Assembly (NCBI GenBank): GCA_025453395.1
Contig: JALOQK010000002.1
Coordinates: 21,625 to 85,624 of the forward strand
Origin: Candidatus Omnitrophota bacterium
GTDB lineage: Bacteria > Omnitrophota > Gorgyraeia > Gygaellales > Profunditerraquicolaceae
Length of the DNA: 64,000 nt
Reading direction: 5' to 3'
The position numbers and the translations under genes are program-made. The stretch's first letter is position 1, and each line of letters begins with the position of its first letter. Below are positions 4,589 through 63,250 of this stretch, one piece after another. The notes below the pieces were generated by a model. That model did not search any database. It was not told where the DNA came from and was given only the letters and a program-made list of their open reading frames with translations.

Positions 4589-4598
4589 AGATATAATA

Positions 4599-7960: not shown

Positions 7961-7964
7961 TATT

Positions 7965-11104: not shown

Positions 11105-11139
11105 GCTGATAGCTGATAGCTGATGACTGAAAGCTGATA
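11105..11139. repeat. heptanucleotide repeat (GCTGATA units)
   Basis: gctgata gctgata gctgatg actgaaa gctgata. This is the reverse-complement orientation of the ATCAGCT family. Confidence 0.75.
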
Positions 11140-16351: not shown

Positions 16352-16353
16352 GT

Positions 16354-23660: not shown

Positions 23661-24686
23661 ATGATCAATGCCGGAATTGTCGGGGCAAGCGGTTATACCG
23701 GAGAAACCCTTTTAGGTATTCTTCTGAAGCACCCCTTTGTGCGCTTAAGTTATCTTTCCCGGGGCCAGGATAAAGAACAGAAGATATCTGAGCTGTTTCC
23801 TAAATTTGAGAAAATAAGCGGCCTCTCCTGCGGGCCGACGGATATCAAGCAAATAAAAGAAAAATGCGATGTGGTTTTCTTGGCTATGCCGCATACCGCT
23901 TCCATGAGCCTGGTGCCGAAGCTTATTTCTTGCGGCAAAAAGGTCATAGATTTAAGCGCGGATTATCGCATAACCGATTATAGGCTTTACGAGAAATCTT
24001 ATCAGGTTAAGCATACGGATAAGGCCAATTTAAAGCAGGCAGTTTACGGACTGCCGGAGCTTTATCGCAATAAAATAAAAACCGCCAGTTTAATCGCCAA
24101 CCCCGGATGTTATCCCACAGCGGCAGTTTTGGCATTAGCGCCGCTTTTGGGCCTTGGGGTTATAGAAAAAGACAATATTATTATAGACGCTAAGTCCGGG
24201 ATAAGCGGCGCAGGGAAGAAAATGTCGGAGGGATTTTTGTTTAACGAGGCCAATGAGGATTTTAAGGCCTATAAGGTAAACAGCCATCAGCATGCTCCGG
24301 AGATAAATCAGATCTTGTCACGGCTGACAGGCAGGAAGACAGAAATTATTTTTGTGCCGCATCTTTTGCCTTTGTATAGGGGGATATTGGAAACTATATA
24401 TGTAAAGAGGTCGGAAGTCAGAGGTCGGAAGTCAAAAGGCAATATAATCGAGTTGTATAAGAAATTCTATAAGGATGAGCCGTTTGTCAGGATTAAGAAG
24501 GACGCGGAATTCCCGCGCCTAAAAGATGTGCAGGGGACAAATTTCTGCGATATCGGGATAAAGGATTGCGGAAGTAATATTATTATTATTTCTGCTATTG
24601 ATAACCTGATCAAGGGGGCTTCTGGACAGGCAGTGCAGAATATGAATATTATGTATAACTTTCCTCAAGAGACCGCGCTTCTATGA
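23661..24686 (+). CDS. argC: N-acetyl-gamma-glutamyl-phosphate reductase
   Basis: AGIVGASGYTGETL .. active-site Cys region PGCYPTA. Carries an in-frame heptamer insert at 24417..24441 (RSEVRGRKSKG). Confidence 0.9.
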   Translation: MINAGIVGASGYTGETLLGILLKHPFVRLSYLSRGQDKEQKISELFPKFEKISGLSCGPTDIKQIKEKCDVVFLAMPHTASMSLVPKLISCGKKVIDLSADYRITDYRLYEKSYQVKHTDKANLKQAVYGLPELYRNKIKTASLIANPGCYPTAAVLALAPLLGLGVIEKDNIIIDAKSGISGAGKKMSEGFLFNEANEDFKAYKVNSHQHAPEINQILSRLTGRKTEIIFVPHLLPLYRGILETIYVKRSEVRGRKSKGNIIELYKKFYKDEPFVRIKKDAEFPRLKDVQGTNFCDIGIKDCGSNIIIISAIDNLIKGASGQAVQNMNIMYNFPQETALL

Positions 24687-26693: not shown

Positions 26694-27875
26694 ATGAAGT
26701 TAGAGGAAGTATTTCAATCTTACAGCGATTTTATAATGCCTACTTACGCTAAAACCCCGCTTGTCTTTGTCAAGGGCAAGGGCAGTTTTCTTTGGGATAT
26801 CCATAGCAAGAAATATTTGGATTTTTTCCCGGGATGGGGCGTAGGAAGCATGGGCCATTGCCATGCTAAGGTGGTGCAGGCGATAAGGGAGCAGGCCGCG
26901 AAACTTATTTTTGTGCCTAATAATTATTATACCCTGGCGCAGGCAAAGTTAGCAAAAAAACTTGTTAGTTTAGCCTTTCCCTCTAAAGTATTTTTCTGCA
27001 ATTCTGGGGCTGAAGCCAATGAAGCCGCGATAAAGTTTAGCCGTAAGTTCGGCAATGGAAGATATGAGATCATAACCTTTCAGGATTCTTTCCACGGGCG
27101 CACCGCTGGGGCATTGGCTGCCACGGGCCAGAAAAAATATCAAGAAGGTTTTCAGCCGCTTTTATCAGGCTTTAAGCTGGCGCAGTTTAATAATTTAGAT
27201 TCGGTGAAATCTCTGATTAATCCCGATACGGTTGCGATTATGTTGGAGCTTATCCAGGGAGAGGGCGGAGTTAACGTTGCCGGTTTAGATTTTATCAAGG
27301 CCTTAAGGGAAATTTGCGACCAGAATAAGCTTCTTTTGATCGTGGACGAAGTGCAAACTGGGATTGGCAGGACGGGGAAGTTTTTTGCTTATCAGCATTA
27401 TGGGATAATCCCTGATATAATTACTTTAGCCAAGGCCTTAGGCGCAGGTTTGCCGATAGGGGCTATGTTAGTCAAAAAAGAAATTGCTGATATATTAACA
27501 TCCGGAACACACGCTTCTACTTTTGGCGGGGGTGCGGTAGTTTGCGCCTCAAGCCTGGCGGTTTTAAAGGCCATGCGCGATGAAGATATTCTTAGTAATG
27601 TGCGTGATGCAGGGGAATATCTTTTTGAGATGGCTTTTAAGTTAAAGGAAAAATATAATATTATCCAAGATGTCAGAGGCAGGGGATTGATGCTAGGCAT
27701 ACAGCTTAAATGCCCGGGTAAGGATATTGTTGCAAAATGCATGCAGAAGGGGCTTCTTATTAATTGCACGCATGATACAGTATTACGGTTAATGCCGGCC
27801 CTTAATGTTACCAAGAAACAGATAGGCCAGGGGATGAGAATATTAGAAGACGTAATTAAGAAAGCGAAAAGTTAA
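26694..27875 (+). CDS. argD: acetylornithine aminotransferase
   Basis: Class III aminotransferase: DEVQTGIGRTG, PLP-Lys in TLAKALGAG. Sits inside the arg gene string. Confidence 0.85.
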   Translation: MKLEEVFQSYSDFIMPTYAKTPLVFVKGKGSFLWDIHSKKYLDFFPGWGVGSMGHCHAKVVQAIREQAAKLIFVPNNYYTLAQAKLAKKLVSLAFPSKVFFCNSGAEANEAAIKFSRKFGNGRYEIITFQDSFHGRTAGALAATGQKKYQEGFQPLLSGFKLAQFNNLDSVKSLINPDTVAIMLELIQGEGGVNVAGLDFIKALREICDQNKLLLIVDEVQTGIGRTGKFFAYQHYGIIPDIITLAKALGAGLPIGAMLVKKEIADILTSGTHASTFGGGAVVCASSLAVLKAMRDEDILSNVRDAGEYLFEMAFKLKEKYNIIQDVRGRGLMLGIQLKCPGKDIVAKCMQKGLLINCTHDTVLRLMPALNVTKKQIGQGMRILEDVIKKAKS

Positions 27876-27900
27876 AAGCGTAAAGCGAAAAGCGAAAAAA
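27871..27900. repeat. AAAAGCG heptamer repeat
   Basis: aaaagcg taaagcg aaaagcg aaaaaat. Confidence 0.7.
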
Positions 27901-27923
27901 TAAAACAAATACGAGGCAAAGAC

Positions 27924-28844
27924 ATGAAAAAAGATTTAATTTCCATAAAAGATTTATCATCTGCAGAGATAAATCAGCTTTTTGATTTGACTGCGCAATT
28001 AAAAAGGAACAAGAATAAATTCTCTCGGGTTTTAAGCGGAAAGACTTTGGCCCTGATTTTCCAAAAGCCCTCAAACCGCACGCGGGTTTCTTTTGAAGTG
28101 GGGATGTATCAGCTGGGAGGAAATTCCATATATTTATCCCCGGGAGAGATAAACCTTGGGGTCAGGGAATCTATCCCGGATGCGGCTAAAACTCTTTCCC
28201 GTTATGTGGATGGGATTGTTTTAAGGACTTTTGCGCATAAAAACGTGATTGAATTGGCTAAATATGCGGATATCCCTGTAATAAACGGTTTATCGGATTT
28301 TTCTCATCCCTGCCAGGCGCTGGCGGATATCTATACGGTTGTTGAGAAATTAGAAAATGTGAAGGGAAAAACCTTAGCTTATGTGGGCGACGGAAACAAT
28401 GTTTGTAATTCGCTTTTATTTATTTGCGCCAAGACCGGCATGAACATTAATGTTGCTGCGCCTGTTGGCTATAAGCCTGATAGAGCGGTGGTGGAGCAAG
28501 CAGAAAATATCGCCCTGCCCAATAAAAGCAAAGTTAGCATTTTTAGCGATCCCTTAAAGGCTGTTAAGGGCTCGGATGTTATTTATACCGATGTTTGGAC
28601 CAGCATGGGGCAGGAAAAAGAGGCCTTAAACAGGCTCAAGGCTTTTAAAGGCTTTCAGATTAATCAGCGGCTTTTGGCGCATGCCAAGAAGGGTGTCCTT
28701 GTTATGCATTGCCTGCCCGCGCACAGAGGCGAGGAAATTACCGGAGAAGTTATGGACAGCAAAAATTCAGTAGTTTTTGATCAGGCGGAAAACCGCATGC
28801 ACGTGCAGAAAGCAGTGTTGATTAAACTGTTAAAACAGCTGTAA
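27924..28844 (+). CDS. argF: ornithine carbamoyltransferase
   Basis: STRTR carbamoyl-phosphate motif and the HCLPAHRGEE motif. Confidence 0.85.
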   Translation: MKKDLISIKDLSSAEINQLFDLTAQLKRNKNKFSRVLSGKTLALIFQKPSNRTRVSFEVGMYQLGGNSIYLSPGEINLGVRESIPDAAKTLSRYVDGIVLRTFAHKNVIELAKYADIPVINGLSDFSHPCQALADIYTVVEKLENVKGKTLAYVGDGNNVCNSLLFICAKTGMNINVAAPVGYKPDRAVVEQAENIALPNKSKVSIFSDPLKAVKGSDVIYTDVWTSMGQEKEALNRLKAFKGFQINQRLLAHAKKGVLVMHCLPAHRGEEITGEVMDSKNSVVFDQAENRMHVQKAVLIKLLKQL

Positions 28845-28892
28845 GCTGTAAGCTATAAGCTGTAAGCTGAAGACTGATAGCTGACAGCTGGA
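28836..28892. repeat. GTAAGCT / GATAGCT heptamer repeat
   Basis: gtaagct gtaagct ataagct gtaagct gaagact gatagct gacagct. Overlaps the argF stop. Confidence 0.75.
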
Positions 28893-30082: not shown

Positions 30083-30084
30083 AA

Positions 30085-30200
30085 AAAATGGGTGAGGTTG
30101 TATAAGGTTACATGAGGTTAAATGATGTTACATGAGGTTGCAAAAAGCTTTAAAGCAACTTCATGTAACCTTCGGTAACTTCATGCAACTTTAATTAACC
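30085..30200. repeat. family B palindromic element (copy 2)
   Basis: aggttacatg aggttaaatg atgttacatg aggttgcaaaaagc ttt aaagcaactt catgtaacct tcggtaactt catgcaactt. Confidence 0.75.
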
Positions 30201-30224
30201 TTATAATTACGGAGGTTTTTATAC

Positions 30225-31578: not shown

Positions 31579-32856
31579 ATGCATTATTTCCAATATAAAA
31601 ATAACCGCCTTTTTTGCGAAGACGCTGATATCCAGGAGCTGGCTGTTAAACACGGCACTCCGCTGTATCTGTACAGCTATAAGACTTTAGTCGACCACTT
31701 TGTGAAATTAACAGATGCCTTCAGTGAAATTGACGCGCTTATTTGTTATTCGGTGAAAGCAAATTCAAACTTAAGCATTCTAAAGGCGCTTGTCAAGAAA
31801 GGCGCAGGGCTTGATATAGTTTCAGGAGGAGAATTGTTCCGCGCGCTTCGTGCCGGCTGTCCCCCTGAAAGGATCGTCTATGCATCGGTGGGCAAAACCG
31901 CTCAGGAGATAAAACAGGCTTTACAGAAAGGTATTTTATTCTTTAATGTGGAATCTATCCCGGAGCTTGAGAATATTAACCGCATAGCAGGTAATTTAAA
32001 TAAAACTGCCCGGGTAGCTCTGCGTATCAATCCCGACGTTGAAGCCAAGACCCATAAATACATTACTACCGGAAAACTTACCAATAAATTCGGTATTGAC
32101 CTTGAAAGCGCGCGCAGGATATTCGGCAGGTCAGCTGAATTTCCTAATCTGCGCATTTGCGGTATTCACATCCACATCGGCTCTCAAATCACTCAAAGCG
32201 CTCCGTTTGTGGCGGCGATAAGGAAAATAGCAGTGTTTATCGATTCCTTGAAGAAAGACGGCATTTGTCTGCAGTATTTGAACATTGGAGGGGGTTTAGG
32301 CATTGTTTATAATAAAGAAACTCCGCAGACAGCCGCTATATACGCTAGCAAGGTTATGGGTTTGCTTAAGAAGACAGGTTTGAAGATTATTCTGGAGCCG
32401 GGAAGGTTTATCGTCGGTAATAGCGGGATATTATTGGCAAAGGTTTTGTATGTCAAAAAAACATTTAAGAAGAATTTTATTATTGTGGATGCGGCAATGA
32501 ATGACTTGATAAGGCCGGCCCTTTATGAAGCGTATCACGAAATCCTGCCGTTGGTAAGATTTCAAGGTGGAAAGCCAAAAGCCAAAAGTCAAAAGTTTGA
32601 TGTGGTCGGCCCTATTTGCGAGAGCGGGGATTATTTTGCCAAAGGCCGCCTATTGCCACAAATTAAAGAGGGCGATTATTTGGCGATTATGAGCGCCGGC
32701 GCCTATGGTTTTAGCATGTCCAGCAATTATAATTCCCGCTGCCGCGCCCAAGAAGTAATGGTAGTCGGCAAAAAAGATTTTGTGATTAGAAATAGAGAGA
32801 TTCGCGAGGATCTAATACGTAACGAGAAAATCCCGCAGTTCTTAAGGCGAAAATGA
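31579..32856 (+). CDS. lysA: diaminopimelate decarboxylase
   Basis: Fold-III PLP decarboxylase (..YSVKAN.., ..HIHIGSQ.., ..GPICESGD..). Carries an in-frame heptamer insert at 32571..32598 (KPKAKSQK). Confidence 0.85.
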   Translation: MHYFQYKNNRLFCEDADIQELAVKHGTPLYLYSYKTLVDHFVKLTDAFSEIDALICYSVKANSNLSILKALVKKGAGLDIVSGGELFRALRAGCPPERIVYASVGKTAQEIKQALQKGILFFNVESIPELENINRIAGNLNKTARVALRINPDVEAKTHKYITTGKLTNKFGIDLESARRIFGRSAEFPNLRICGIHIHIGSQITQSAPFVAAIRKIAVFIDSLKKDGICLQYLNIGGGLGIVYNKETPQTAAIYASKVMGLLKKTGLKIILEPGRFIVGNSGILLAKVLYVKKTFKKNFIIVDAAMNDLIRPALYEAYHEILPLVRFQGGKPKAKSQKFDVVGPICESGDYFAKGRLLPQIKEGDYLAIMSAGAYGFSMSSNYNSRCRAQEVMVVGKKDFVIRNREIREDLIRNEKIPQFLRRK

Positions 32857-33689
32857 GAAAAATAAAATTTACAAAAATGGTCGCATCTGGTAATGATTTT
32901 GTCGTTGTTGATAAGCTTAAAGCTTATAGCTTAAAGCTTAAAGCTTTTTCTAAATCTATTTGTGACAGAAAATATGGAGCTGGGGCTGATGGGCTGCTAA
33001 TTTTGTCACAGCTTGTATTATCTCATGGCAAGCGTTCCGCTTCCTGCGGTATGCGTATTTTTAATGCCGATGGCTCTGAAGCCCAGATGTGCGGCAATGG
33101 GGCTAGGTGCGCGGCGTTGTATTTCAGCTGTCAGCTGTCAGCTGTCAGCTGTCAGCAAAAGATAAAAATAGAAACCAAAGCAGGGGATATACATTCTTTA
33201 GTAAACGGTAATAATGTAAAGATTAAATTAACTGATCCCAAAGGTTTAAGATTAAACATTCCAATTAAGCTTAATGGCAGAACGCTTAAGGTTAATTTTA
33301 TTAATACCGGGGTCCCGCATGCGGTTATTTTTGTGGAGGGCCTTGATAAAATTGACGTGGATAATTTAGGCAGAGCTATTCGTTATCATCAGGTTTTCAA
33401 GCCGCAAGGCGCGAATGTAAATTTTGTGGAAGTTTTGAATAATACTTCTATCAGGATAAGGACTTATGAAAGAGGCGTAGAGGGCGAAACTTTAGCCTGC
33501 GGTACCGGCTCTGTTGCTTCGGGTTTGCTTACCGCTTACAACTTACCGCTTACAGCTAATATTATAAATGTCCACACCCGGGGCGGCCAGATATTAAAAG
33601 TTGATTTTCAAAAATCAGGCGATGGTTTCAAGGATGTCTGGTTAGAGGGCAAAGCAAAAATTGTATACCAAGGAGAATACTATGTTTAG
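32853..33689 (+). CDS. dapF: diaminopimelate epimerase
   Basis: ..ASGNDFVVVD.. N-terminus, GNGARC catalytic Cys motif, second Cys in ..LACGTGS... Contains two internal heptamer repeat arrays. Confidence 0.85.
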   Translation: MRKIKFTKMVASGNDFVVVDKLKAYSLKLKAFSKSICDRKYGAGADGLLILSQLVLSHGKRSASCGMRIFNADGSEAQMCGNGARCAALYFSCQLSAVSCQQKIKIETKAGDIHSLVNGNNVKIKLTDPKGLRLNIPIKLNGRTLKVNFINTGVPHAVIFVEGLDKIDVDNLGRAIRYHQVFKPQGANVNFVEVLNNTSIRIRTYERGVEGETLACGTGSVASGLLTAYNLPLTANIINVHTRGGQILKVDFQKSGDGFKDVWLEGKAKIVYQGEYYV

Positions 33690-34557
33690 AGGATCAATTG
33701 TGGCTATGGTCACGCCATTTAAAGACGAAAAAATTGACGAGAAGAGATTCAGAAGTTTAATTGATTTTCAGATTGAAAACGGCACTTCCGGCATCGTCCC
33801 CTGCGGCACTACAGGTGAATCCGCGACATTGTCGGTTAAAGAGCACCAGCGTTTGATTGAATTGGCCATAGAGCAGGTGAATAAGCGCGTGCCGGTAATT
33901 GCCGGTACAGGTTCCAACTCTACGGATGAGGCGATCACTTTAACGAAGCACGCTTTTCATGCGGGCGCAGATGCTTCTTTGCAGGTAGCTCCGTATTATA
34001 ACCGCCCTACCCAGACCGGGTTATACCAGCATTTTAAGAAAATAGCCCAAGCAGTAGATATCCCGATCATTGTTTATAATATTGCTTCCCGCACAGGGGT
34101 TAATATCGAGCCGGAAACTATCGCGAAGCTGGCCTCTGAATGTAAGAATATTGTAGGAGTGAAAGAGGCATCCGGAAATCTTGAGCAGATGTCTCGTATC
34201 TTAAGTCTTACTCCAGCAGGATTTATTCTTCTTTCAGGAGATGATGCGCTCACACTTCCTGTTTTAAGCATCGCAGGAGCAGGGGTAATTTCTGTGGTGG
34301 CTAATATTGTTCCAAAAGATGTTTCCAGGCTGGTAAATGTCTTTGAAGATGGCGACATCCAAAAGGCGCAAGATATGCATTACAAACTTTTTCCGCTTGT
34401 CAAAGCTATGTTTATTGAAACAAATCCTATACCGGTTAAAACCGCGATGGGCCTGTTAAAGATGTGTTCACCGGAACTTCGTCTTCCGATGTCAGAAATG
34501 CTTCCTGACAATGTAGAGAAACTTAAGAAGGCGTTGAAAAATTACGGGTTATTATAA
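33682..34557 (+). CDS. dapA: 4-hydroxy-tetrahydrodipicolinate synthase
   Basis: MFRGSIVAMVTPF .. GTTGES; Schiff-base Lys in GVKEASGN. Start chosen at MFRG (aggaga ribosome-binding site 6 nt upstream). Confidence 0.85.
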   Translation: MFRGSIVAMVTPFKDEKIDEKRFRSLIDFQIENGTSGIVPCGTTGESATLSVKEHQRLIELAIEQVNKRVPVIAGTGSNSTDEAITLTKHAFHAGADASLQVAPYYNRPTQTGLYQHFKKIAQAVDIPIIVYNIASRTGVNIEPETIAKLASECKNIVGVKEASGNLEQMSRILSLTPAGFILLSGDDALTLPVLSIAGAGVISVVANIVPKDVSRLVNVFEDGDIQKAQDMHYKLFPLVKAMFIETNPIPVKTAMGLLKMCSPELRLPMSEMLPDNVEKLKKALKNYGLL

Positions 34558-34660
34558 AGGAAGTTAAATAAGGTTACATGAAGTTACCGTAGGTTAAATT
34601 AGGTTGCTTAAAAGCTTTTTGCAACTTCATTTAACATCATTTAACCTCAATTAACCTTAA
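34558..34660. repeat. family B palindromic element (copy 3)
   Basis: aagttaaata aggttacatg aagttaccgt aggttaaatt aggttgcttaaaagctttttgcaa cttcatttaa catcatttaa cctcaattaa. Confidence 0.75.
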
Positions 34661-34674
34661 ATGGAGGAGTTTTT

Positions 34675-37826: not shown

Positions 37827-38650
37827 TGCGAAAGAAAATAAGGATCGGGATTGTCGGATGCGGAGCGATCGGCTCTTCTTTGGCAAAAGCTATAACTAAA
37901 GAATTTTCTGCAGATGCTTACGTGTCGGCATTGTTTGACACTCAGCCCGATAAGGCGCAGCTTTTATCTGTGGCGCTTCGCAAAGATATTTCTTTGGCAG
38001 TTTCTTCCCTTAAAGACCTGATCAGCTTCTCTGATTTTATAATAGAATCTTCAAGCGCTCAGGCCTCAGGCGGAATCTGCCGTCAGGCTGTCAATAACGG
38101 CAAGGATATATTGGTGATGAGTGTGGGAGGGCTTCTGAAGAGTTATCCGCGGATATTTAATTTAGCTAAAAAGAAAAAGGTGAAAGTCTATATCCCAAGC
38201 GGAGCTATCGGCGGGGTTGATGCCTTAAAGGCCCTGAATCTGTCAGATGTCAAAAAGGTCACGCTTACTACCACTAAAAACCCTATCGCTTTTAAGAAAG
38301 TGGAATATTTGATTAAGAAGCGCATTGTGCTTTCCGAAATTAAGAGTAAAAAAGTTTTATTTTACGGAAACGCTTTAAGGGCAGTGCGTTGTTTTCCGCA
38401 GAATATCAATGTGGCGGCTGTTTTATCATTAGTTGGAATAGGCGCGAAGCAAACAAAAGTAAAGATCGTTGCTTCTCCAAAGGTTAACAAGAACATACAT
38501 GAAGTGCAAATAATTTCCCGGGCCGGTAATTTTTATAGCCGTTCGGAGAATGTATTGCATCCGGGCAACCCAAAGACCAGCTACTTGGCTTTTTTATCGG
38601 CAAAGGCGCTGTTGCGCGATATTTTTCTGCCGGTTAAAATAGGCACATAA
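37826..38650 (+). CDS. nadX: L-aspartate dehydrogenase candidate
   Basis: IGIVGCGAIGSSLAKAI Rossmann N-terminus, ~270 aa, C-terminal ..HPGNPKTSYLAFLSA... A family-level guess only. Confidence 0.5.
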   Translation: MRKKIRIGIVGCGAIGSSLAKAITKEFSADAYVSALFDTQPDKAQLLSVALRKDISLAVSSLKDLISFSDFIIESSSAQASGGICRQAVNNGKDILVMSVGGLLKSYPRIFNLAKKKKVKVYIPSGAIGGVDALKALNLSDVKKVTLTTTKNPIAFKKVEYLIKKRIVLSEIKSKKVLFYGNALRAVRCFPQNINVAAVLSLVGIGAKQTKVKIVASPKVNKNIHEVQIISRAGNFYSRSENVLHPGNPKTSYLAFLSAKALLRDIFLPVKIGT

Positions 38651-38820
38651 TAGATGTTAAATGAAGTTACATGAAGTTAAATAAGGTTAAATGAAGTTGC
38701 TCGAAGAATGTTACATGAAGTTGCATGAGGTTACATAAAGTTACATGACGTTGCAAAATAATTTCTTTTATGCAACCTCACGTAACATCATTTAACCTCA
38801 TGCAACCTCAATTAACTTCA
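38651..38820. repeat. family B palindromic element (copy 4, longest)
   Basis: At least eight direct units (gttaaatgaa gttacatgaa gttaaataag gttaaatgaa gttgctcgaa .. gttacatgaa gttgcatgag gttacataaa gttacatgac gttgcaaaataatttcttttatgcaa), then inverted units cctcacgtaa catcatttaa cctcatgcaa cctcaattaa. Confidence 0.8.
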
Positions 38821-38845
38821 AAAAGAGAGGGGGTGAATACAGAAT

Positions 38846-56026: not shown

Positions 56027-56679
56027 AGATTAACCCTAATAGGTCAGTTACTCTTTTGGAATTATTGATGAGCCTGCTTATCATGAGTATTGTTTTAGCC
56101 GCCTTAACAAGTATCAATACTTTTATTAATCACAACGCTTTATCCAGTGACAGAAGATCTAAGCTGCAGAATGAAGTATCTTATACTTTAGAGCATATGA
56201 CTAAAGAAATAGGCAAGGCGCGGGGCAATGAGGTTGCTTCTGGCGCGGGCAAGGTTTTAGCAATTACGGCAAGCGCTTCTGCAGGGGGGCAAGTAATAAG
56301 GTTTTTAGCTAATGATAATGATTATGCTGTTCCGGGAAACTGGGCAGCGTATCTTTACATTCCTCAGGGTTATCCAAATAGTTATCAAATACGTTATTGT
56401 GAGAAGTGCGCTGATACGGATTGTAATTCTTGCAGTTTTCCTGCTTCCTGGGCAGCTTTACCTGCTAATTACATTATCGCCCGGAAGGTAAAAGTATTTG
56501 TGCCTGATAAGCCGATGATAAATGACCCTTCTGATCAACGTTTGAATCAAAATTATTTTAGCGTTAGGATTACTTCTTGTTGGGATCCGGCGCTTGCTTC
56601 TCCGCCTGACGGCACATCGGAAAATCCCTGCATTACCATGGAAACCCGCATGAAGATGCCCTCGGTTTCTACCCATTAG
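56023..56679 (+). CDS. minor pilin-like protein (S-VTLLE junction)
   Basis: MKINPNRS-VTLLELLMSLLIMSIVLAAL. ATGA start/stop overlap with the upstream gene. Several Cys in the C-terminal domain. Confidence 0.55.
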   Translation: MKINPNRSVTLLELLMSLLIMSIVLAALTSINTFINHNALSSDRRSKLQNEVSYTLEHMTKEIGKARGNEVASGAGKVLAITASASAGGQVIRFLANDNDYAVPGNWAAYLYIPQGYPNSYQIRYCEKCADTDCNSCSFPASWAALPANYIIARKVKVFVPDKPMINDPSDQRLNQNYFSVRITSCWDPALASPPDGTSENPCITMETRMKMPSVSTH

Positions 56680-56680
56680 A

Positions 56681-56900
56681 AAAGCGCAAAACTAAAAGCG
56701 CAAAGCGTAAATCGATAATCCAAAATTCAAAATTTTTAATTTTACGCTATAGTTTTACCTGCCTGCCGGCAAGGCAGGCGTTTTTCGCTTTACATTTTAC
56801 GCTATATAAGACAAAAATCGTCTAACTTTTATGTATTTGGCTGATAGCTGAAAGCTGATAGCTGATAGCTGAAAGCTGATATAATTTGACTGAACTTATG
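56681..56900. repeat. family A heptad-periodic palindromic element plus GCTGATA repeats (copy 1)
   Basis: aaaagcg caaaact aaaagcg caaagcg taaatcg ataatcc aaaattc aaaattt ttaattt tacgcta tag .., inner hairpin ctgcctgccggcaaggcaggcg, then gctgata gctgaaa gctgata gctgata gctgaaa gctgata. Confidence 0.8.
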
Positions 56901-56958
56901 CCTTATGTTATATTGTTTTCTATATTGAGCGGATTTTAAGTGATAAATTGATTAAATT

Positions 56959-57031
56959 GGGGCTGTAGCTCAGTTGGGAGAGCGCCTCGTTCGCAACGAG
57001 GAGGCCAGCGGTTCGATCCCGCTCAGCTCCA
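56959..57031 (+). tRNA. tRNA-Ala (anticodon CGC)
   Basis: 73-nt cloverleaf with 7-bp acceptor stem including G3:U70, D-loop agttggga, anticodon loop ttCGCaa, T-loop ttcgatc. CCA is not encoded. Confidence 0.9.
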
Positions 57032-57162
57032 CTTAATGAGCCCAAAACTTACGGAAGCGATAGCGACGTAAGTTTTATGGGCGAATTAACTCCGACGAAT
57101 GCCCGAAAATTTACGTAAGGAAATTTTCGGAGCGTTTATGAGTCGGAGCAGATAATAGCGTA

Positions 57163-58644
57163 GTGGCAAGTCAGTGCGACGCCACGACCCATCTAATCCC
57201 TATGCGTCACATTTTTTTTATTTTATCTTTATTATTCCTAAACATCTCTTTTGCCCAAGAAGTAAAACTTCCCGATGCCGCAGGAGGATTTTATCCGGAT
57301 GACCCCAAGCAATTATCCGACATGATAGATGCCTGCCTTAAAGATGCAAATCCTAAAACGCCAGAGGGTAGAATTCTTGCCATTATTGCCCCGCACGCAG
57401 GATACGGCTTTTCTGCTGGCACCGCCGCCTTTTCCTATAAGCTTGTAGAGGGCACGCCTTATAAAACAGTGATTATAATCGGCCCCAGCCACTTTTATTC
57501 TTTTGCGGGTGTTTCAGTTTATCCATCCGGGGTTTTTCGCACTGCCTTAGGCGATGTCCCAGTTGACAGTGATTTTACCGCTAAGCTTTTAAATCAAAAC
57601 CCGGAAATAATCTTTGATCCTAAGGCCTTTGAAAAAGAACATTCTGTTGAGGTACAGCTTCCATTCTTACAAAAGACATTGGTAGATTTTAAGATTGTTC
57701 CCATTGCTATGGGTGATTGCACTTTGGGCGCCTGTCAGAAGCTTTCAGATTTTTTAAGCGCGGCAATTGGAGCAAGGGATGATGTTTTGGTGGTAGTTTC
57801 AAGCGACCTTTGCCACAGTTATAATTATCATCTTACGGAGAAAACCGACCGCGCTACTTTAGATGCTTTGCTTAAGATGGATGACGAAGCGTTTTATTAT
57901 GGCGTGCGTGACGGTAAATTTCAGGCCTGCGGGGCCTTTCCGATAGTGGTTGCCTTAAAGTTGGCCAAGGCAAAGGGTTTTAAAGATTTAGAAGTTTTAA
58001 AATACACTAATTCAACCGAGGTTATTTCTAAGAAAGAAAAAGGCGTATGGTCCGTAGGATATGCCGCGTCCGTTATAAGCGCTAAACCGGAGGGTGAAAA
58101 TATGTTAGACACAAAACAGCAAAAGCGGTTGCTTCAGATTGCCCGTCAGGCAATAATAGAACATTTTAAAGGCAAGAAGGCAGAAGAAATCAAAGAAACT
58201 GACCCGGATTTATCCAAGCCAATGGGGTCTTTTGTAACTTTGCATAATAAGGGCAAGCTTCGCGGATGTATCGGTAATATCATCGGCGGAAAACCGCTTT
58301 ATCTGACGGTAAGGGACATGGCAATTGCCGCCAGCACCCAGGATTATCGTTTTTCTCCAGTTGAGGAAGCAGAACTAAAGGATATAGATATTGAAATTTC
58401 AGTTTTATCTGTTCCGCAGAGAGTCGCTTCCGCAGAAGAAATTCAATTGGGGAAACACGGAGTAATCGTTAAGCGCGATGGCCACAATGGAGTATTCTTG
58501 CCTCAAGTTGCTACAGAGACCGGATGGACAAAAGAGGAATTTTTGTCAGAGTTGTGCCAGCAGAAGGCAGGCCTTGCGCCTAGCGCTTGGAAAGATCCGC
58601 AAACCGAACTTTATATTTTTACCGCGCAGGTGTTTAAGGAGTAG
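57163..58644 (+). CDS. Memo-like (AmmeMemoRadiSam system protein B) fused to AMMECR1 domain, with apparent signal peptide
   Basis: N-terminal half FYPDDP..ILAIIAPHAGYGFSAG..VIIIGPSHF (Memo/DUF52-type). C-terminal half ..MGSFVTLHNKGKLRGCIGNIIG.. (AMMECR1 RGCIG motif). The probable true start MRHIFFILSLLFLNISFAQE at 57202 looks like a Sec signal. Confidence 0.7.
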   Translation: MASQCDATTHLIPMRHIFFILSLLFLNISFAQEVKLPDAAGGFYPDDPKQLSDMIDACLKDANPKTPEGRILAIIAPHAGYGFSAGTAAFSYKLVEGTPYKTVIIIGPSHFYSFAGVSVYPSGVFRTALGDVPVDSDFTAKLLNQNPEIIFDPKAFEKEHSVEVQLPFLQKTLVDFKIVPIAMGDCTLGACQKLSDFLSAAIGARDDVLVVVSSDLCHSYNYHLTEKTDRATLDALLKMDDEAFYYGVRDGKFQACGAFPIVVALKLAKAKGFKDLEVLKYTNSTEVISKKEKGVWSVGYAASVISAKPEGENMLDTKQQKRLLQIARQAIIEHFKGKKAEEIKETDPDLSKPMGSFVTLHNKGKLRGCIGNIIGGKPLYLTVRDMAIAASTQDYRFSPVEEAELKDIDIEISVLSVPQRVASAEEIQLGKHGVIVKRDGHNGVFLPQVATETGWTKEEFLSELCQQKAGLAPSAWKDPQTELYIFTAQVFKE

Positions 58645-58650
58645 CCTAAT

Positions 58651-59385
58651 ATGAGAAGATTTTTCTGCCCTTCGGAGAATATCAGGAATAATAAAATATG
58701 CATTAGTGACAAAGATACGCTTCATCATATAAAAGATGTCTTGCGCATGAAGCCAAAAGACGAAGCAGTTATTTTTAGTGAAAAATCCGATGAATTTAAA
58801 GCCTGTCTGGAATCTGTGGATGAAGAAAAGGCCCAGTTTTTTATTAAGCAAGCTTTGATGCCCTCAAAAGAGCAGTTACTTAAGATTACGGTTTGTTGCG
58901 CTATTCCCAAAAAAGCCAAGATGGATGAAATTGTGGATAAGCTTACTCAGCTTGGTGTAGAGAAGATTATTCCGTTAGCCAGCGACCATGTGATCGGGCG
59001 CATGGACAAACAAAGGCAAAAGGAAAAAGTCGCGCGCTGGCAAAGGATCGCTAAAAGCGCCAGCCTCCAAAGCCAGAGGAATATCATACCGGTTGTAGAA
59101 GAGATTAAAACCGTGGATGAGGCGCTTAAAGAAAACAATGCTTTTGACCTTAAGGTCATTGCTAATTTAGCCAATCGCCCCAAATTCCTAAAAGATGTTT
59201 TTTCCCCGGATAAGCACAAGAGGATTCTTGTTTTTATCGGTCCAGAAGGTGATTTTTCCGCGCGGGAAATAAATTTGGCCTTAGAAAATTCCTGTGTTGC
59301 GGTTTCCCTGGGAGAAACTACCCTTAGGGTGGATACCGCGGCGATTGCGGTGGTAAGTTATATAAAGCTTAGTAACGCGTGTTAG
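58651..59385 (+). CDS. rsmE: 16S rRNA (uracil1498-N3)-methyltransferase RsmE
   Basis: RFF.. N-terminus, PUA-like domain, C-terminal SPOUT knot motif VFIGPEGDFSAREI .. SLGETTLRVDTAAIA. Confidence 0.75.
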   Translation: MRRFFCPSENIRNNKICISDKDTLHHIKDVLRMKPKDEAVIFSEKSDEFKACLESVDEEKAQFFIKQALMPSKEQLLKITVCCAIPKKAKMDEIVDKLTQLGVEKIIPLASDHVIGRMDKQRQKEKVARWQRIAKSASLQSQRNIIPVVEEIKTVDEALKENNAFDLKVIANLANRPKFLKDVFSPDKHKRILVFIGPEGDFSAREINLALENSCVAVSLGETTLRVDTAAIAVVSYIKLSNAC

Positions 59386-59390
59386 CTAAA

Positions 59391-59480
59391 AATTAAAAGC
59401 GCAAAGCGTAAAACGATAATCCAAAATTCAAAATTTTTAATTTTACGCTATAGCTTTTCGCTTTTCGCTTTACGCTTTTA
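59391..59480. repeat. family A heptad-periodic palindromic element (copy 2)
   Basis: aaaagcg caaagcg taaaacg ataatcc aaaattc aaaattt ttaattt tacgcta tagcttt tcgcttt tcgcttt acgcttt. Left and right arms are reverse complements. Confidence 0.8.
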
Positions 59481-59488
59481 GCTTATTT

Positions 59489-60724
59489 ATGAAAAAGACC
59501 ATTAAATTTTATACCCTCGGCTGTAAGGCCAACCAATACGAAACACAGAGCATAAGAGAATACTTTTTGAATAATGGTTTTAGCGAGAAAGAAGGTAGCG
59601 CTAAAGCAAATGTCTATGTTATTAATACCTGTACGGTAACTTCCAAGGCTGACAGCCAATCGCTTAATATTATCCGCCGCCTGCGCAAGGAAAATCCAAA
59701 GGCTAAAATTATTGTTACCGGGTGTTTGACTGAATTAGACGCGGATAAAATTAAACAAGCCTGCCAGGTTGATTCCATTATTAAGAATAAAGACAAAAAT
59801 AAGATTTCCCAATCCATTTCATATTTTAAAAACCATACCCGCGCTTTCTTAAAAGTGCAAGACGGCTGTAATTATTTCTGTTCGTATTGTAAAGTGCCTT
59901 TGGTGCGCGGGCGTTCTCAAAGCCGGGATTTTAATCAGATCATTTCCGAAGCCGAGAGGCTTTCGGCCAATGGCTATAAGGAAATTGTTTTAACCGGCAT
60001 TTGCCTGGGCTCTTATCAGGATTTGGCAAAATTAGTAAGCACTTTAGAGAAAATCCCTGGGTTGCTGCGTTTAAGATTAAGCTCCATTGAGCCGCAAGAT
60101 ATAAAAGATGATCTAATAAAAGTTATCAAGAATTCTTCGGTTTTATGCCGGCATTTGCATATTCCGTTACAAAGCGGAGATGATAGTATTCTAAAGAAAA
60201 TGCGCCGGCGTTACAGCAGCAAAGATTTTTTGCGGTTAGTTAAGAAAATCCGCAAGAATATCCCCGGCATTGCCATTACTACCGATTGTTTAGTGGGGTT
60301 TCCCGGCGAAACAAAAGAGAATTTTCAGAATACTGTAAAATTGATAAAAGAAATAAATCCTCTTAAGGTGCATATCTTTCCGTATTCGCCGCGGCCAGGC
60401 ACGCAAAGCTACCTAAAATATAAAACGCAAGTTGATTTAGAAGAAGTAAAAGAAAAATGCCGCATGCTTGAGGCAGTAAACTCTAATCAAGCCAAGAAAT
60501 ACTTACGTAAATTCTTAAATAAGCCGATGGATGTTCTAATAGAGGGCAAGGTTAAAGGCGCAAGCGAATTTTGGCAGGGGCATACTTCAAATTACATAAA
60601 AGTGCTTGTGGATTCCAAGGAAAATTTGTATAATAAAATAATAAAAGTTGCGCCTAATAAGCTTAAGAATGAGTGTTTGCAAGCTATAAGCTATAAGCGT
60701 AGAGCGAAAAATGCAAAACCATAA
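59489..60724 (+). CDS. MiaB-like tRNA/ribosomal methylthiotransferase (MTTase domain + radical SAM + TRAM)
   Basis: N-terminal MTTase Cys triad (LGCKAN, NTCTV, TGCL), radical-SAM CNYFCSYC, C-terminal TRAM-like domain. 411 aa. Confidence 0.75.
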   Translation: MKKTIKFYTLGCKANQYETQSIREYFLNNGFSEKEGSAKANVYVINTCTVTSKADSQSLNIIRRLRKENPKAKIIVTGCLTELDADKIKQACQVDSIIKNKDKNKISQSISYFKNHTRAFLKVQDGCNYFCSYCKVPLVRGRSQSRDFNQIISEAERLSANGYKEIVLTGICLGSYQDLAKLVSTLEKIPGLLRLRLSSIEPQDIKDDLIKVIKNSSVLCRHLHIPLQSGDDSILKKMRRRYSSKDFLRLVKKIRKNIPGIAITTDCLVGFPGETKENFQNTVKLIKEINPLKVHIFPYSPRPGTQSYLKYKTQVDLEEVKEKCRMLEAVNSNQAKKYLRKFLNKPMDVLIEGKVKGASEFWQGHTSNYIKVLVDSKENLYNKIIKVAPNKLKNECLQAISYKRRAKNAKP

Positions 60725-60860
60725 TTCAAAACTTAAAATTTTAAATTTTACGCTATAGTTTTACGCTTTGCGCTTTAAGTTTTTAGTTTTTAAGGTTTTG
60801 AATTTTTAATTATGGCTTTTAGCTCTTAGTTTTTAGCTTACAGCTTACAAGGAGGCTGAT
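60725..60860. repeat. family A element (copy 3) with core in both orientations
   Basis: ataattcaaaacttaaaattttaaattttacgctatag .. ttttgaatttttaattatgg (reverse complement of core) .. tagctta cagctta. Confidence 0.75.
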
Positions 60861-61349
60861 ATGTTTAAAAGATTGTTCTGTCTGGTTGTTATTTTTATTC
60901 TTCCGGCAATAGTTTTTGCTTTAGAGGAACAGATTACGGTTACAACTTATTATCCCAGCCCCTATGGCTCATACGCGGAACTGCGTTCAAAGAAAATGGT
61001 AATTGGAGCTACCTATATAAAAGAAAGTACTTTGCCAACTTCTTCTGTTGCGGATAGTAATTTAATAGTAGAAGGAAATGTTGGTATTGGGATAACAGCT
61101 CCGGTAGCAAAGTTGGAGGTGAATGGTGCTGCTATAATTCAGGGTAATGCCGTAATTAATAATGGTGCTAATATCATGAATGGCCTGCAAACTGATCAAC
61201 TTAGAGTTATGAGTACAGTCCAATTCCCTTTCCCCCCACCCGGTCCGGTTGGTTCTAGTATTTTATGTGTAAAAAATGGTGGTTTTATCGGAACCTGTAA
61301 TCCTACTATAAATGGAGGTACTAATACGTTTACATGTATTTGTAACTAA
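60861..61349 (+). CDS. small secreted Cys-containing protein with tail-fibre-like repeat motif
   Basis: Signal peptide LFCLVVIFILPAIVFA. Motif EGNVGIGITAPVAKLEVNG resembles the xVGIGTTxPxxKLxVxG motif of phage tail-fibre / endosialidase-chaperone-associated proteins. C-terminus has 5 Cys. Confidence 0.45.
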   Translation: MFKRLFCLVVIFILPAIVFALEEQITVTTYYPSPYGSYAELRSKKMVIGATYIKESTLPTSSVADSNLIVEGNVGIGITAPVAKLEVNGAAIIQGNAVINNGANIMNGLQTDQLRVMSTVQFPFPPPGPVGSSILCVKNGGFIGTCNPTINGGTNTFTCICN

Positions 61350-61520
61350 TCATTCCAATATAGCCTGCATAGATAAATTTATGCATTTATTTGTAAGATT
61401 GCCTTCTTTTTTGCGTCTAATAGCGTAAGAGAGGAGGTTTTTTATGTCTACCATTAAAGTGTCAAGTTAAATCCCAAATCCAAATAATACCAAATCCCGG
61501 ATTGTCTGGTATGAGTAAAT

Positions 61521-61590
61521 GACGGTAGCGAAAAGTGTAAAGCGAAAAATGTAAAAGTATAATTTAAAATTAAAAACAGAAAGAGAGAAA
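61521..61590. repeat. family A element fragment (copy 4)
   Basis: agcgaaaagtgtaaagcgaaaaatgtaaaagtataatttaaaattaaaaac. Confidence 0.6.
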
Positions 61591-61955
61591 TGAACAGCCA
61601 GAATTTGAAATTAAAAGATAGGGCATATCAGTATTCTGTAAAAATAATTGAGTTTCTGGATATATTACCCAAAGATACATCAACCCAGGTTATTTTGAAG
61701 CAACTATTAAGGTCAGCTACTTCTATAGGAGCAAATATTATTGAAGCACAGGCCTCAAGCTCAAAGAGAGATTTTACTAATTTCTTCAGTTATTCTCTTA
61801 AATCTGCTAATGAGAGTTTGTATTGGTTGAGTTTATTAAAAGATGCTAGGAAAGTAGGTAATCCTCAATTAGGGTATCTTTTGGTTGAAACTCAAGAATT
61901 AGCAAATATACTAGCAGCGAGTATTTTGACCTTAAAAGGTAAGAATAAGTTTTGA
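61590..61955 (+). CDS. four-helix-bundle protein (TIGR02436 / 23S rRNA intervening-sequence protein family)
   Basis: ..AYQYSVKIIEFLDILPKD .. LLRSATSIGANIIEAQ .. SLKSANESLYWLSLLKD pattern of this family. Confidence 0.7.
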   Translation: MNSQNLKLKDRAYQYSVKIIEFLDILPKDTSTQVILKQLLRSATSIGANIIEAQASSSKRDFTNFFSYSLKSANESLYWLSLLKDARKVGNPQLGYLLVETQELANILAASILTLKGKNKF

Positions 61956-62000
61956 ATTTTTAATTATAGTTTTTAGCTTTAAGCTTTAAGCTGAGCATAC
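61951..62000. repeat. family A element fragment (copy 5, core in reverse orientation)
   Basis: ttttgaatttttaattatag tttttagctttaagctttaagctgagc. Confidence 0.6.
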
Positions 62001-62094
62001 AACTTGCAGCTGTTTTTTGCTTTGACAGGGACCAAGAGCTGTCTTATAATAGAACTCTTGTATTGCTATTATCATAATAAAATGGAGGATTTAA

Positions 62095-63144
62095 ATGAGC
62101 GCGGAAAAGAAAAAAGAAGAGCATAAGAAAGAAGAGCACAAGAAGGAAGAGGCCAAAGAATTATCCAATCGTCAAAAGGCGCTGGAGCTGGCGCTTGCCC
62201 AGATTGAGAAACAGTTTGGCAAAGGTTCAATTATGAAAATGGGAAGCGAAACCCGCTTTGATGTGGAGGCTATCCCTACCGGAGCCCTGACTTTAGATTT
62301 AGCTTTAGGTGTTGGAGGCCTGCCAAGAGGAAGGGTCATTGAGATTTTTGGGCCAGAGGCTTCTGGTAAAACGACTCTTACTTTAAGCGTAATTAAAGAG
62401 ATCCAGAAAAAAGGCGGGGTGGCGGCTTTTATTGACGCGGAGCATGCCTTTGATTCCACATATGCCAAAGTCGTGGGTATTAATCTGGATGATCTTTTGA
62501 TTTCCCAGCCTGACACCGGTGAGCAGGCGCTGGAGATTGCCGAGACCCTGGTGCGCTCCAATGCCGTGGATTTAGTGGTCATAGATTCAGTGGCGGCTTT
62601 AACTCCCAGGGCGGAAATTGAAGGCGAGATGGGTGATTCGCATGTGGGGCTGCAGGCGCGGCTTATGTCGCAGGCTTTAAGAAAACTTACCGCGGCTATC
62701 TCTAAATCCCGCACCTGTGTTATTTTCATTAACCAGCTGCGCGAGAAGATCGGGGTAATGTTTGGCTCTCCGGAAACTACTCCCGGAGGCAGAGCCTTAA
62801 AGTTTTATTCTTCGGTCAGGCTTGACTTAAGAAGGATCCAGACTTTAAAACTCGGCGAACAAGTAGTCGGTAACCGCGTCAGGGCAAGGGTAGTTAAGAA
62901 TAAAGTCGCCCCTCCTTTTAGAGAGGCGGAATTTGAGACGCTGCATAACGAAGGAATAGCCAAGGTAAATACCATTTTGGACGCGGCAGTGAATTTAGAG
63001 ATCGTGGAGAAATCCGGCACTTGGCTTTCTTTTGCCGGAGAGAAACTGGGGCAGGGCCGTGACGCGGCAATTAAGCTGTTAAGGGAAAAGTCCAAGATCG
63101 CGGATGATATTGAGAAGGAAGTCAGGAAGAGAATATCTTTGTAG
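62095..63144 (+). CDS. recA: recombinase RecA with Lys/Glu-rich N-terminal extension
   Basis: ..[24 protein letters not shown].. Walker [11 protein letters not shown]1/L2 loops. Extra N-terminal [21 protein letters not shown]. Confidence 0.95.
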
Positions 63145-63250
63145 CGTAAAGTGTAAAGCGAAAAACTAAAAGTTATAATTCAAAATTCAAAAGTTTTTAA
63201 TTTTGCGTTATAGTTTTACGCTTTTAGCTTTAAGTTTTTAGCTATCTAAA
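63145..63250. repeat. family A heptad-periodic palindromic element (copy 6)
   Basis: gcgtaaagtgtaaagcgaaaaactaaaagttataattcaaaattcaaaagtttttaattttgcgttatagttttacgcttttagctttaagtttttagcta. Confidence 0.8.

Follow-up and report, generated by a model that had tools for sequence, protein, structure and literature searches.

A family of palindromic repeats, here called family A, was investigated in a 64,000-nucleotide stretch of contig JALOQK010000002.1 from a Candidatus Omnitrophota bacterium (the window), together with a small gene for a four-helix-bundle (4HB) protein of the family PF05635 that lies among the repeats. The G+C content of the window is 42.5% and all of its credible genes are on the + strand. 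They include fab, leu, arg, dap, uvrA, tol, type IV pilus, recA, and his genes. Another 8 kb beyond the window was taken from contig L001, which brought the readable sequence to 72 kb. The genes were checked against Pfam, and the comparison loci are named L001 to L064.

An earlier note on this DNA had described six copies of a palindrome within 6.5 kb. The family was found at that place, between 56.68 and 63.25 kb. However, only four copies (c1, c2, c3, and c5) are full imperfect palindromes of about 105–125 nucleotides (nt). The supposed sixth is one copy split around the PF05635 gene (arms c4L and c4R), and a solo right arm (c3b) comes in addition. The genes said to be separated by the copies were confirmed by Pfam, namely those of Memo/AMMECR1, RsmE, a radical-SAM MTTase, the PF05635 protein, RecA, and HtrA, and the tRNA is a tRNA-Ala (cgc). 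There is no rRNA in the window, and all of the family A copies are located between protein-coding genes or beside the tRNA gene. An independent assembly, the Logan contig L002, agrees with the window at every position of a 5,244-nt segment that covers the stretch from a 162-residue open reading frame (ORF) to htrA. Therefore, the repeats are not an assembly artefact. The positions of the repeats and of the two small genes among them are as follows.

56680–56804, + strand: copy c1, located between the stop codon of the last pilin-like gene (TAG, 56677–56679) and the promoter region of the tRNA-Ala gene
56758–56780, + strand: G+C-rich stem-loop followed by TTTTT, nested in the right arm of c1 and not found in the other copies
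56959–57032, + strand: tRNA-Ala gene, anticodon cgc
59383–59485, + strand: copy c2, 3' of rsmE and 5' of the MTTase gene; rsmE has its stop codon in the first three bases of the copy (TAG), and the MTTase gene starts with its ATG 3 nt past the end of the copy, without a Shine–Dalgarno sequence
60682–60794, + strand: copy c3; the MTTase frame extends 40 nt into its left arm
60795–60849, + strand: solo right arm c3b, which shares 86% identity with the right arm 3' of the 4HB gene; it includes TTTTGA, a stop-codon remnant
61526–61577, + strand: c4L, which forms the left side of the gene-bearing copy and shares 85% identity with the left arm of c5; 3' of it lie a ribosome-binding region and then the 4HB ATG
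61590–61955, + strand: 4HB gene (PF05635 23S_rRNA_IVP, TIGR02436), 121 amino acids
61947–61992, + strand: c4R, right arm of the gene-bearing copy, which holds the last three codons and the TGA stop codon of the 4HB gene
63142–63244, + strand: copy c5, separating recA from htrA; recA has its stop codon in the first three bases of the copy (TAG)
4613–4690, + strand: AAAGCG-type units, left arm only, no partner; the sole match to the family A profile in the first 56 kb, and a weak one
27851–27911, + strand: a lone left arm of the AAAGCG type, 5' of the ornithine carbamoyltransferase gene

Repeat finding returned a 101-nt family with four members at 56683, 59384, 60689, and 63144, which also pair as inverted repeats. 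When the copies are properly aligned, both strands of the four fall into one palindromic consensus of about 110 nt. The remark that the core occurs in either orientation has little meaning for a palindrome. The common core itself stands only in part. A 38-nt core is exact at 56715 (c1) and 59416 (c2), whereas it has three mismatches at 60721 (c3) and an indel with substitutions in c5; the number of such matches expected with up to three mismatches is 0.00. The left 75 nt of c1 are nearly identical to c2. The arms are arrays of a 7-nt unit, NAAAGCG on the left and CGCTTTN on the right, with the consensus form (N)AAAGC(N) and its complements, and the A/T-rich centre of the consensus keeps the same 7-nt period. 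A profile built from the copies matches c2 (E 4e-29), c3 (2e-27), and c5 and c1 (2e-25).

One extra composite copy is present between hisH and hisA, 7 kb downstream, at positions equivalent to 70285–70488 of the window (L001). No family A copy was found in the tightly packed htrA-recX-alaS-hisD-hisB-hisH block of L001. All of the copies thus fall within 56.7–70.5 kb of the 72 kb. Since the profile has only one weak partial match in the first 56 kb, the local clustering that had been noticed is real within the 72 kb.

Syntenic loci were obtained from relatives with RecA proteins at 85–88% identity. One of them, L052, comes from the same metagenome as the window (RecA 87% identical) and carries, in this order, the pilin genes, tRNA-Ala, Memo/AMMECR1, rsmE, MTTase, recA, htrA, alaS, hisD, hisB, hisH, and hisA. 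In this locus, rsmE and the MTTase gene overlap, hisH and hisA overlap, and recA and htrA are 10 nt apart (13 nt in both L051 and L054). The MTTase–recA spacer of L052 is 153 nt long and contains a conserved hairpin and the recA promoter. Neither a family A copy nor the 4HB gene nor the 162-residue ORF was found in L052. Because the sites occupied in the window are overlapping or 10-nt junctions in L052, the family A copies are best understood as lineage-specific insertions. That these insertions reflect active mobility is held with moderate confidence. An all-against-all comparison of the loci gave no clean pair of strains with and without a copy.

Two further observations concern the content of such spacers. 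In L041 (270–450), a gene-less family A copy occupies the spacer between tmk and holB. The same spacer of L043 (250–500), from another strain, contains unrelated 7-nt and 8-nt arrays, and the flanks of these two loci are 99.8% identical on one side and 89% on the other. Thus, spacer content changes fast. In L054 (RecA 85% identical), a different, G+C-rich palindromic element was observed, with two copies of about 128 nt which are 95% identical. The hisH–hisA junction of L054 holds a G+C-rich palindromic insert, apparently of the same type, at the place where the window genome has family A. The positions of these L054 features are 1938–2065, 7730–7857, and 16260–16400. The same junctions seem to be struck repeatedly by different elements.

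The 4HB gene cassette and its gene-less copies

The protein encoded between c4L and c4R belongs to the 23S rRNA intervening-sequence protein family (PF05635, E 1e-20; TIGR02436, E 6e-24) and matches the Protein Data Bank (PDB) entry 2RLD by sequence (E 1e-16). Its AlphaFold model is a four-helix bundle with a pLDDT of 89.6. The model is closest to 2RLD and 2GSC, and five chains (A–E) of each entry are among the matches. The next matches are Avd proteins of diversity-generating retroelements (DGRs; 4DWL and 8UB7), with TM scores of about 0.7–0.8 and a sequence identity of about 15%. At E < 1e-5, 5,549 relatives were found. The best 120 of these are 74–83% identical and come from Omnitrophica and Planctomycetota assemblies, mostly on short contigs; many homologues are on contigs shorter than 2 kb. 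To our knowledge, PF05635/TIGR02436 is a very large orphan family whose only known settings are the intervening sequences (IVSs) of rRNA and, for the distant Avd branch, DGRs.

When metagenome and species-representative genome collections were scanned with a 24-nt degenerate pattern from the right half of the palindrome, 30 loci with G+C contents of 30–51% were obtained. The labels of the metagenome-assembled genomes (MAGs) include Planctomycetota, Pirellulales, Phycisphaerae, Atribacteria, and 'Gammaproteobacteria'. In most of the 30 loci, the conserved blocks AAAACCATAATTCAAAAC ... TTTTGAATTTTACGCTATAGTTTTAC are found between arms of 7-nt units, with unrelated housekeeping genes on either side. 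The elements have either orientation relative to the genes, and some lie between convergent or divergent genes. A 4HB gene flanked by arms was found in seven contexts with G+C contents of 31–51%, namely in the window, L031, L033, L041, L056, L060, and L064. The genes around five of these cassettes are listed below.

L033, and L060 of another genome: 4HB cassette between the POR alpha and beta genes
L041 (31% G+C): 4HB cassette between an rsmI-like gene and metG
L056 (51% G+C): 4HB cassette between a CN-hydrolase gene and aroA
L064: 4HB cassette downstream of ribBA

The 4HB gene is co-oriented with the neighbouring host genes in all seven contexts. An A-rich 7-nt array reaches into its start codon, and a T-rich array is present just 3' of its stop codon, also in seven of seven. 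The conserved N-terminus (MQNQNSKFK) and C-terminus (KGKNKF*) of the protein are encoded by the inner ends of the arms, and the inverted repeat includes the codons at both ends of the gene. With the family A profile, the left half matches 5' and the right half 3' of the 4HB gene in four of the contexts (the window, L031, L033, and L041), and the same placement of the arms was seen by eye in L056, L060, and L064. The arms co-vary from cassette to cassette, as judged by eye (for example GCTCAAA...TTTGAGC in L064).

The relation between the gene-bearing and gene-less forms is seen best on contig CAYMVY010000001.1. At L031 of this contig, a full 4HB gene (48% identical to that of the window) lies between arms. 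L028 has the same arms and ribosome-binding site, but its ATG and first 11 codons pass directly into the last codons, which are followed by the right arm. Over 141 nt on the left, the two loci differ by few mismatches and short indels, the right part is identical at 49 of 52 positions, and 326 nt of the gene interior are gone. The two thus stand to each other as an autonomous element to a miniature form derived from it. Since the full cassette and the remnant share one contig, the gene-less copies are explained as internal-deletion derivatives. The gene-less copy of L041 also keeps 5' and 3' remnants of the 4HB gene. In the window, the centre of c3 retains ATGCAAAACCATAATTCAAAACTTAAAATT, which corresponds to the start codon and about 9 codons of a 4HB gene, and this segment is identical to the region around the 4HB start codon of L056 at 36 of 40 positions. 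The gene-less copies resemble the cassette of their own genome most, with 89% (left) and 84% (right) for c5 and 91% and 87% for the L041 copy. They outnumber the gene-bearing ones. Taken with the empty junctions of the relatives and the seven 4HB contexts, the L028/L031 pair upholds the earlier suggestion of a locally amplified family that resembles miniature inverted-repeat transposable elements (MITEs) and is linked to 4HB genes.

The selection acting on the seven 4HB genes was estimated from their substitutions. Synonymous sites are saturated (pS 0.6–0.85), and pN is about 0.1 among six close genes. Where computable, dN/dS is 0.03–0.11 among these six and 0.13–0.23 against the distant gene of L031. 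The low dN/dS indicates that the 4HB protein is kept by purifying selection. The arm motifs are still recognisable despite the synonymous saturation, which argues that the arms are constrained beyond neutral sites. The 4HB cassettes are old. A phage or viral origin was also considered and rejected, as neither a single-sequence nor a profile search found a relative in IMG/VR contigs.

Some loci carry related structures of other types. Two gene-less palindromes of L064 (376–491 and 2940–3056; 85% mutual identity) lie less than 5 kb from its 4HB cassette. They have A-rich and T-rich 7-nt arms and a central G+C hairpin like that of a bidirectional terminator, and they do not belong to the arm family of the cassette. 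In Planctomycetota-labelled contigs, only the right-arm motif (TTTTGAATTTTACGCTATAG and CGCTTTT units) was observed, at L007 (1120–1210), L023 (11040–11170), L027, L029, L014/L022, and L019/L030. The conserved segment 5' of this motif ends in GAAAT(T/C)(C/T)GTGGCT and is not a 4HB gene.

Origin of family A and competing explanations

The overall result makes it probable that family A consists of gene-less derivatives of a small selfish 4HB cassette which were inserted at gene junctions of operons. The anatomy of the copies and their descent from the cassette can be stated with high confidence. The proposed course of events is as follows. The cassette is a 4HB gene between inverted 7-nt arrays, A-rich on the 5' side and T-rich on the 3' side, with the terminal codons as part of the repeat. 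Deletion of the gene interior would leave a palindrome of about 110 nt. Such copies would then have been inserted at stop-codon ends within operons, within about 14 kb of the resident gene-bearing copy. They would be co-transcribed with the host operons and form long imperfect RNA hairpins, and by analogy with the rRNA IVSs, RNase III may cut these hairpins, which would separate or destabilise the neighbouring cistrons rather than terminate transcription. The 4HB protein, as the only candidate encoded by the element, may be the factor which recognises the 7-nt arrays. Confidence in this last role is low.

For the understanding of the copies at the RNA level, their folding was predicted. Each copy folds as an imperfect hairpin of about 50 pairs with –22 to –34 kcal/mol and z of –1.4 to –3.8 (either strand). 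The claim of covariation is limited to the co-variation of the arms judged by eye. Comparison with Rfam at the gathering threshold detected only tRNA, and extending it to E ≤ 1 added weak matches to plant microRNA hairpins; thus no known RNA family was assigned. A directional sigma-70 promoter in the core (TTCAAA, 16–17 nt, TATAGT) was also rejected, since it agrees at only 9 of 12 positions, and the occurrence of elements elsewhere in both orientations and between convergent genes disfavours it.

A consensus terminator site is present only in c1, in its nested 21-nt hairpin of G+C pairs with a T-run, whereas the other copies have A/U-rich centres and interrupted outer stems. A terminator role is plausible for c1 only, which would have acquired a canonical hairpin at an operon end. 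The downstream genes of c2, c5, and the hisH–hisA copy have lost the coupled start context and have no promoter of their own, so these copies are probably transcribed through. The MTTase gene (window 59489) and hisA (L001 18900) both start a few bases past a palindrome of 100–200 nt, without a Shine–Dalgarno sequence. When the palindrome folds, the upstream stop codon and the downstream start codon would meet at the foot of the stem. This may preserve translational coupling and account for the tolerance of insertions between genes that once overlapped. Any RNA-level function of the copies is proposed with low confidence, on the analogy with the rRNA elements.

Several points weigh against descent from a mobile 4HB cassette. 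The A/T-rich 7-nt units inflate similarity scores, and c1 and c2 have no clear ORF remnant. No target-site duplication was made out. The ends of the copies often read TA|GC...GC|TA, but the same letters occur in the arm units, and the relatives have diverged too far at their empty sites for the junctions to be placed. At individual sites, loss from the relatives instead of gain in the window genome may have occurred. The cassette itself carries no transposase, integrase, or reverse transcriptase, and we know of no catalytic activity for a 121-residue helical bundle. Considering the synonymous saturation of the seven 4HB genes, the gene-bearing cassettes rarely move, if at all. Recent transposition, which would show as one 4HB protein in several contexts, was looked for and rejected, as each exact protein occurs in one context. 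The folding is not uniformly strong. The plus strand of c2 barely beats its shuffles (z –1.4), and the consensus that RNAalifold derived from 13 copies (–2.3 kcal/mol) is weak and out of register, which is explained by the ability of the 7-nt units to pair in several registers.

Three other origins were weighed. It is quite unlikely, in our judgement, that the palindromes are older host hairpins into whose loops a mobile 4HB ORF homes, the gene-less copies being empty targets. The rRNA IVSs do occupy hairpin loops (PMC4990558), and both the greater number of gene-less copies and the missing ORF remnants of c1 and c2 fit this idea. However, it does not account for L028, where a ribosome-binding site, an ATG, and 11 codons are still present and almost match those of the full gene elsewhere on that contig, nor for the ORF ends retained in c3 and in the gene-less L041 copy, and the terminal codons of the ORF belong to the inverted repeat. 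In addition, the absence of the palindromes from relatives argues that they are not conserved host structures. There is a comparably small chance that family A elements are ordinary MITEs moved by a distant conventional transposase or by a REP-associated tyrosine transposase (RAYT; REP, repetitive extragenic palindromic sequence), with the 4HB gene as a passenger. The recurrence of the same gene with the same type of arms in seven contexts of 31–51% G+C, the gene termini within the repeat, and the strong purifying selection on the 4HB protein, which would be unusual for a passenger, are all difficult to reconcile with it. No transposase, integrase, reverse transcriptase, or RAYT was found among the window genes and in the adjoining 8 kb, and 105–125 nt far exceeds the length of a REP. 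Nevertheless, the inverted ends, the insertion polymorphism against relatives, and the local clustering are as expected from such elements, and with 72 kb of the genome covered, a transposase may lie farther off.

The third origin, that the palindromes are host regulatory devices (bidirectional terminators or insulators) which evolved in place and are not selfish, appears very improbable. An A-rich arm, a hairpin, and a T-rich arm do resemble a bidirectional intrinsic terminator; c1 has a canonical G+C hairpin and T-run at an operon end, the related L064 elements have a central G+C hairpin, and each copy fits precisely into the gap from one stop codon to the start codon that follows. In contrast, the genes separated by c2 and those separated by the hisH–hisA copy overlap in relatives, and the downstream genes have neither a promoter nor a Shine–Dalgarno sequence. 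Therefore, with efficient termination there, neither the MTTase gene nor hisA would be expressed. The stems at the centre are weak and A/U-rich, the elements of other genomes occur in both orientations and between convergent and divergent gene pairs, and nucleotide homology across phyla with ORF remnants indicates descent from a cassette.

With family A read as the offspring of a 4HB cassette, the 4HB family gains a genetic context and a candidate ligand. The context is a cassette with conserved arms in ordinary operons which leaves gene-less offspring, and the ligand would be the 7-nt arrays. The palindromes split translationally coupled genes, add tails to proteins, and probably break metagenome assemblies. 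They are therefore relevant to the annotation of Omnitrophota and Planctomycetota MAGs.

Comparison with known elements

The nearest known elements are the ORF-carrying IVSs of 23S rRNA. The IVS of Coxiella burnetii is a selfish element in 23S rRNA with an S23p ORF in the loop of a 28-bp stem of terminal inverted repeats; three tandem heptameric repeats, variable in number, lie just 5' of the start codon, and RNase III cuts the stem (PMC4990558). Earlier authors suggested that the rRNA IVS is mobile, with a mobility factor encoded by its ORF (PMC4990558), and the sequence evidence obtained here revives this old proposal. Family A shares several properties with the IVSs of Coxiella, Leptospira, Xanthomonas, and Brucella. 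The gene-bearing copy encodes a protein of the same family (PF05635/S23p), the gene lies in the loop of a terminal-inverted-repeat stem in the window and in the six other cassettes, heptamers are found 5' of the start in all of the left arms, and the start region is within the stem. On the other hand, family A is inserted between operon genes and not in helix 9, 25, or 45 of 23S rRNA, its arms are arrays of 5–7 units instead of a 28-bp stem, strong purifying selection acts on the 4HB protein, in contrast to the decaying ORF of Coxiella, and gene-less palindromic derivatives are dispersed nearby.

Family A also has features of a MITE, since the copies are short and non-coding with terminal inverted repeats, derive by deletion, and are present or absent at orthologous sites. 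The Correia/NEMIS MITEs of Neisseria are similar in being non-coding elements of 100–150 nt with inverted ends which are intergenic and co-transcribed, arose by internal deletion of a longer element, and vary in presence among relatives. Correia hairpins in mRNA are cut by RNase III. However, they have no sequence similarity to family A. The parent of family A has no recognisable transposase, and its ends are 7-nt arrays rather than a unique 26-bp repeat.

The alternative label of a REP-like element is not supported. REP/RAYT systems likewise consist of clustered extragenic palindromes tied to one small repeat-flanked gene. Yet RAYT is a tyrosine transposase of the IS200/IS605 type, whereas the gene considered here encodes a four-helix bundle, and the elements, at 105–125 nt, are three times as long as a REP. 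REPs are given as 20–40 nt with a GTAG or CGTC head (PMC3733652). Family A elements have no constant tetranucleotide head. The likeness to DGRs is limited to the fold shared with Avd. Unlike in a DGR, no reverse transcriptase, template, or variable repeat was found within 10 kb of the 4HB gene or elsewhere in the window, and the neighbours of the gene are the MTTase gene, the ORF without an assigned family, recA, and htrA.

Heptamer arrays outside of such elements are known as well. In Geobacter metallireducens, paired arrays of four or five heptanucleotide repeats occur between and within genes and were read as regulator sites (PMC2700814). Those arrays and family A have in common 7-nt units that are often inverted pairs. 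They differ in the sequences of the units, and no link to 4HB genes was reported there. In our incomplete coverage of the literature, no paper was found that links PF05635 genes to palindromic repeats outside rRNA. Considering all of these comparisons, the system is best filed as an IVS-type 4HB cassette in protein-coding operons with MITE-like offspring.

Heptamer arrays, other repeats, and neighbouring features

Tandem Repeats Finder detected 7-nt-unit arrays at about 26 places in the window and 10-nt-unit arrays at about 12. Most of the tandem arrays occupy the few spacers longer than 40 nt, some as palindromic pairs and some as one-armed arrays. The rest of the window is thus not simply packed tightly, as had been supposed, since most of its other spacers above 40 nt hold 7-nt or 10-nt arrays of other families. 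The units which do not belong to family A include TCAGCTN, GCTGATA, AAAGTCA, AAGCTTA, and GGTTACATGA, and family A is one family in this wider class of arrays. Cyanobacterial STRR repeats are tandem 7-nt arrays of a comparable kind. Among 271 kb of non-redundant loci (the window and L004–L064), a period of 7 was found in 102 of 245 tandem arrays (26 of 59 in the window). The lengths of the period-7 arrays pile up at 4–5 units and drop above about 5.6.

Eight period-7 arrays lie in frame within housekeeping genes of the window, among them the following.

recG: 6185–6259
leuC-like aconitase gene: 15185–15236
semialdehyde dehydrogenase gene: 24406–24434
lysA: 32571–32595
dapF: 32913–32946, 33124–33156, and 33527–33557

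The array of RecG is a 19-residue insert in comparison with Thermotoga maritima RecG. In the first array of DapF, the unit variant TAT in place of TAA avoids a stop codon, and there is no change in length against solved homologues. The palindromic elements of Rickettsia are selfish repeats tolerated in frame within housekeeping genes and may be compared with the RecG insert. They differ from the in-gene arrays of the window, which are one-armed tandem arrays and not palindromes. The data suggest a genome-wide process which makes or spreads heptamer arrays, with family A and the cassette as its most structured products.

A wider version of the cassette model was considered on this basis, and we regard it as unlikely. 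According to it, the 4HB protein would be the trans-acting factor of a transposase-less mobile class, and host enzymes would spread the heptamer palindromes and one-armed arrays in Omnitrophota and Planctomycetota, including to in-frame sites of housekeeping genes. One 7-nt unit would be bound per 4HB subunit, with five chains in the solved relatives, and the shoulder of array lengths at 4–5 units fits such binding. If it is true, the origin of ORF-carrying rRNA IVSs would be explained, and the heptanucleotide arrays of Geobacter and heterocystous cyanobacteria might be explained as well.

Two other repeat families were observed in the spacers. One of them is palindromic, with 10-nt units GAGGTTACAT opposite ATGTAACCTC and arms that are 85–88% complementary between copies. 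Four copies lie between genes of the coaD, arg, and dap clusters (7852–7964, 30084–30204, 34554–34665, and 38637–38826), and no gene-bearing version of this family was seen. The other consists of TCAGCTN/NAGCTGA units in one-armed arrays right after stop codons or before start codons, at 4597–4619, 11105–11139, 28837–28890, and 56840–56881 of the window, and it forms a full palindrome once (L001 20180–20252). Many unit types of the window genome have an AGC/GCT core. The remaining features next to the family A copies are listed below.

56840–56881, + strand: six GCTGATA/GCTGAAA 7-nt units, not of family A, upstream of the promoter-like site of the tRNA gene
60861–61349, + strand: secreted-looking ORF of 162 amino acids without a family match, absent from the syntenic relative
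62022–62050, + strand: recA promoter-like site (TTGACA, 17 nt, TATAAT; 12 of 12), kept in relatives and outside the element

Since the 162-residue ORF is absent from the syntenic relative, it is counted with the DNA that was inserted 3' of the MTTase gene and 5' of recA in this lineage. A hairpin (GCCTTCTTTTTTGCG...GAGAGGAGGT) followed by a T-run lies upstream of the recA promoter at 61401–61438 of the window. Its position, and in part its sequence, is kept in L052 (about 5465–5510) and L054 (about 7700–7750), and it may be a terminator or a regulatory structure of recA. At the other end of the window, five successive ORFs without a Pfam match (47–2963) contain long internal direct repeats, of which 331–480 and 1040–1189 match at 95% and 167–300 and 885–1018 at 78%. 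This suggests that the five ORFs are recently duplicated paralogues.

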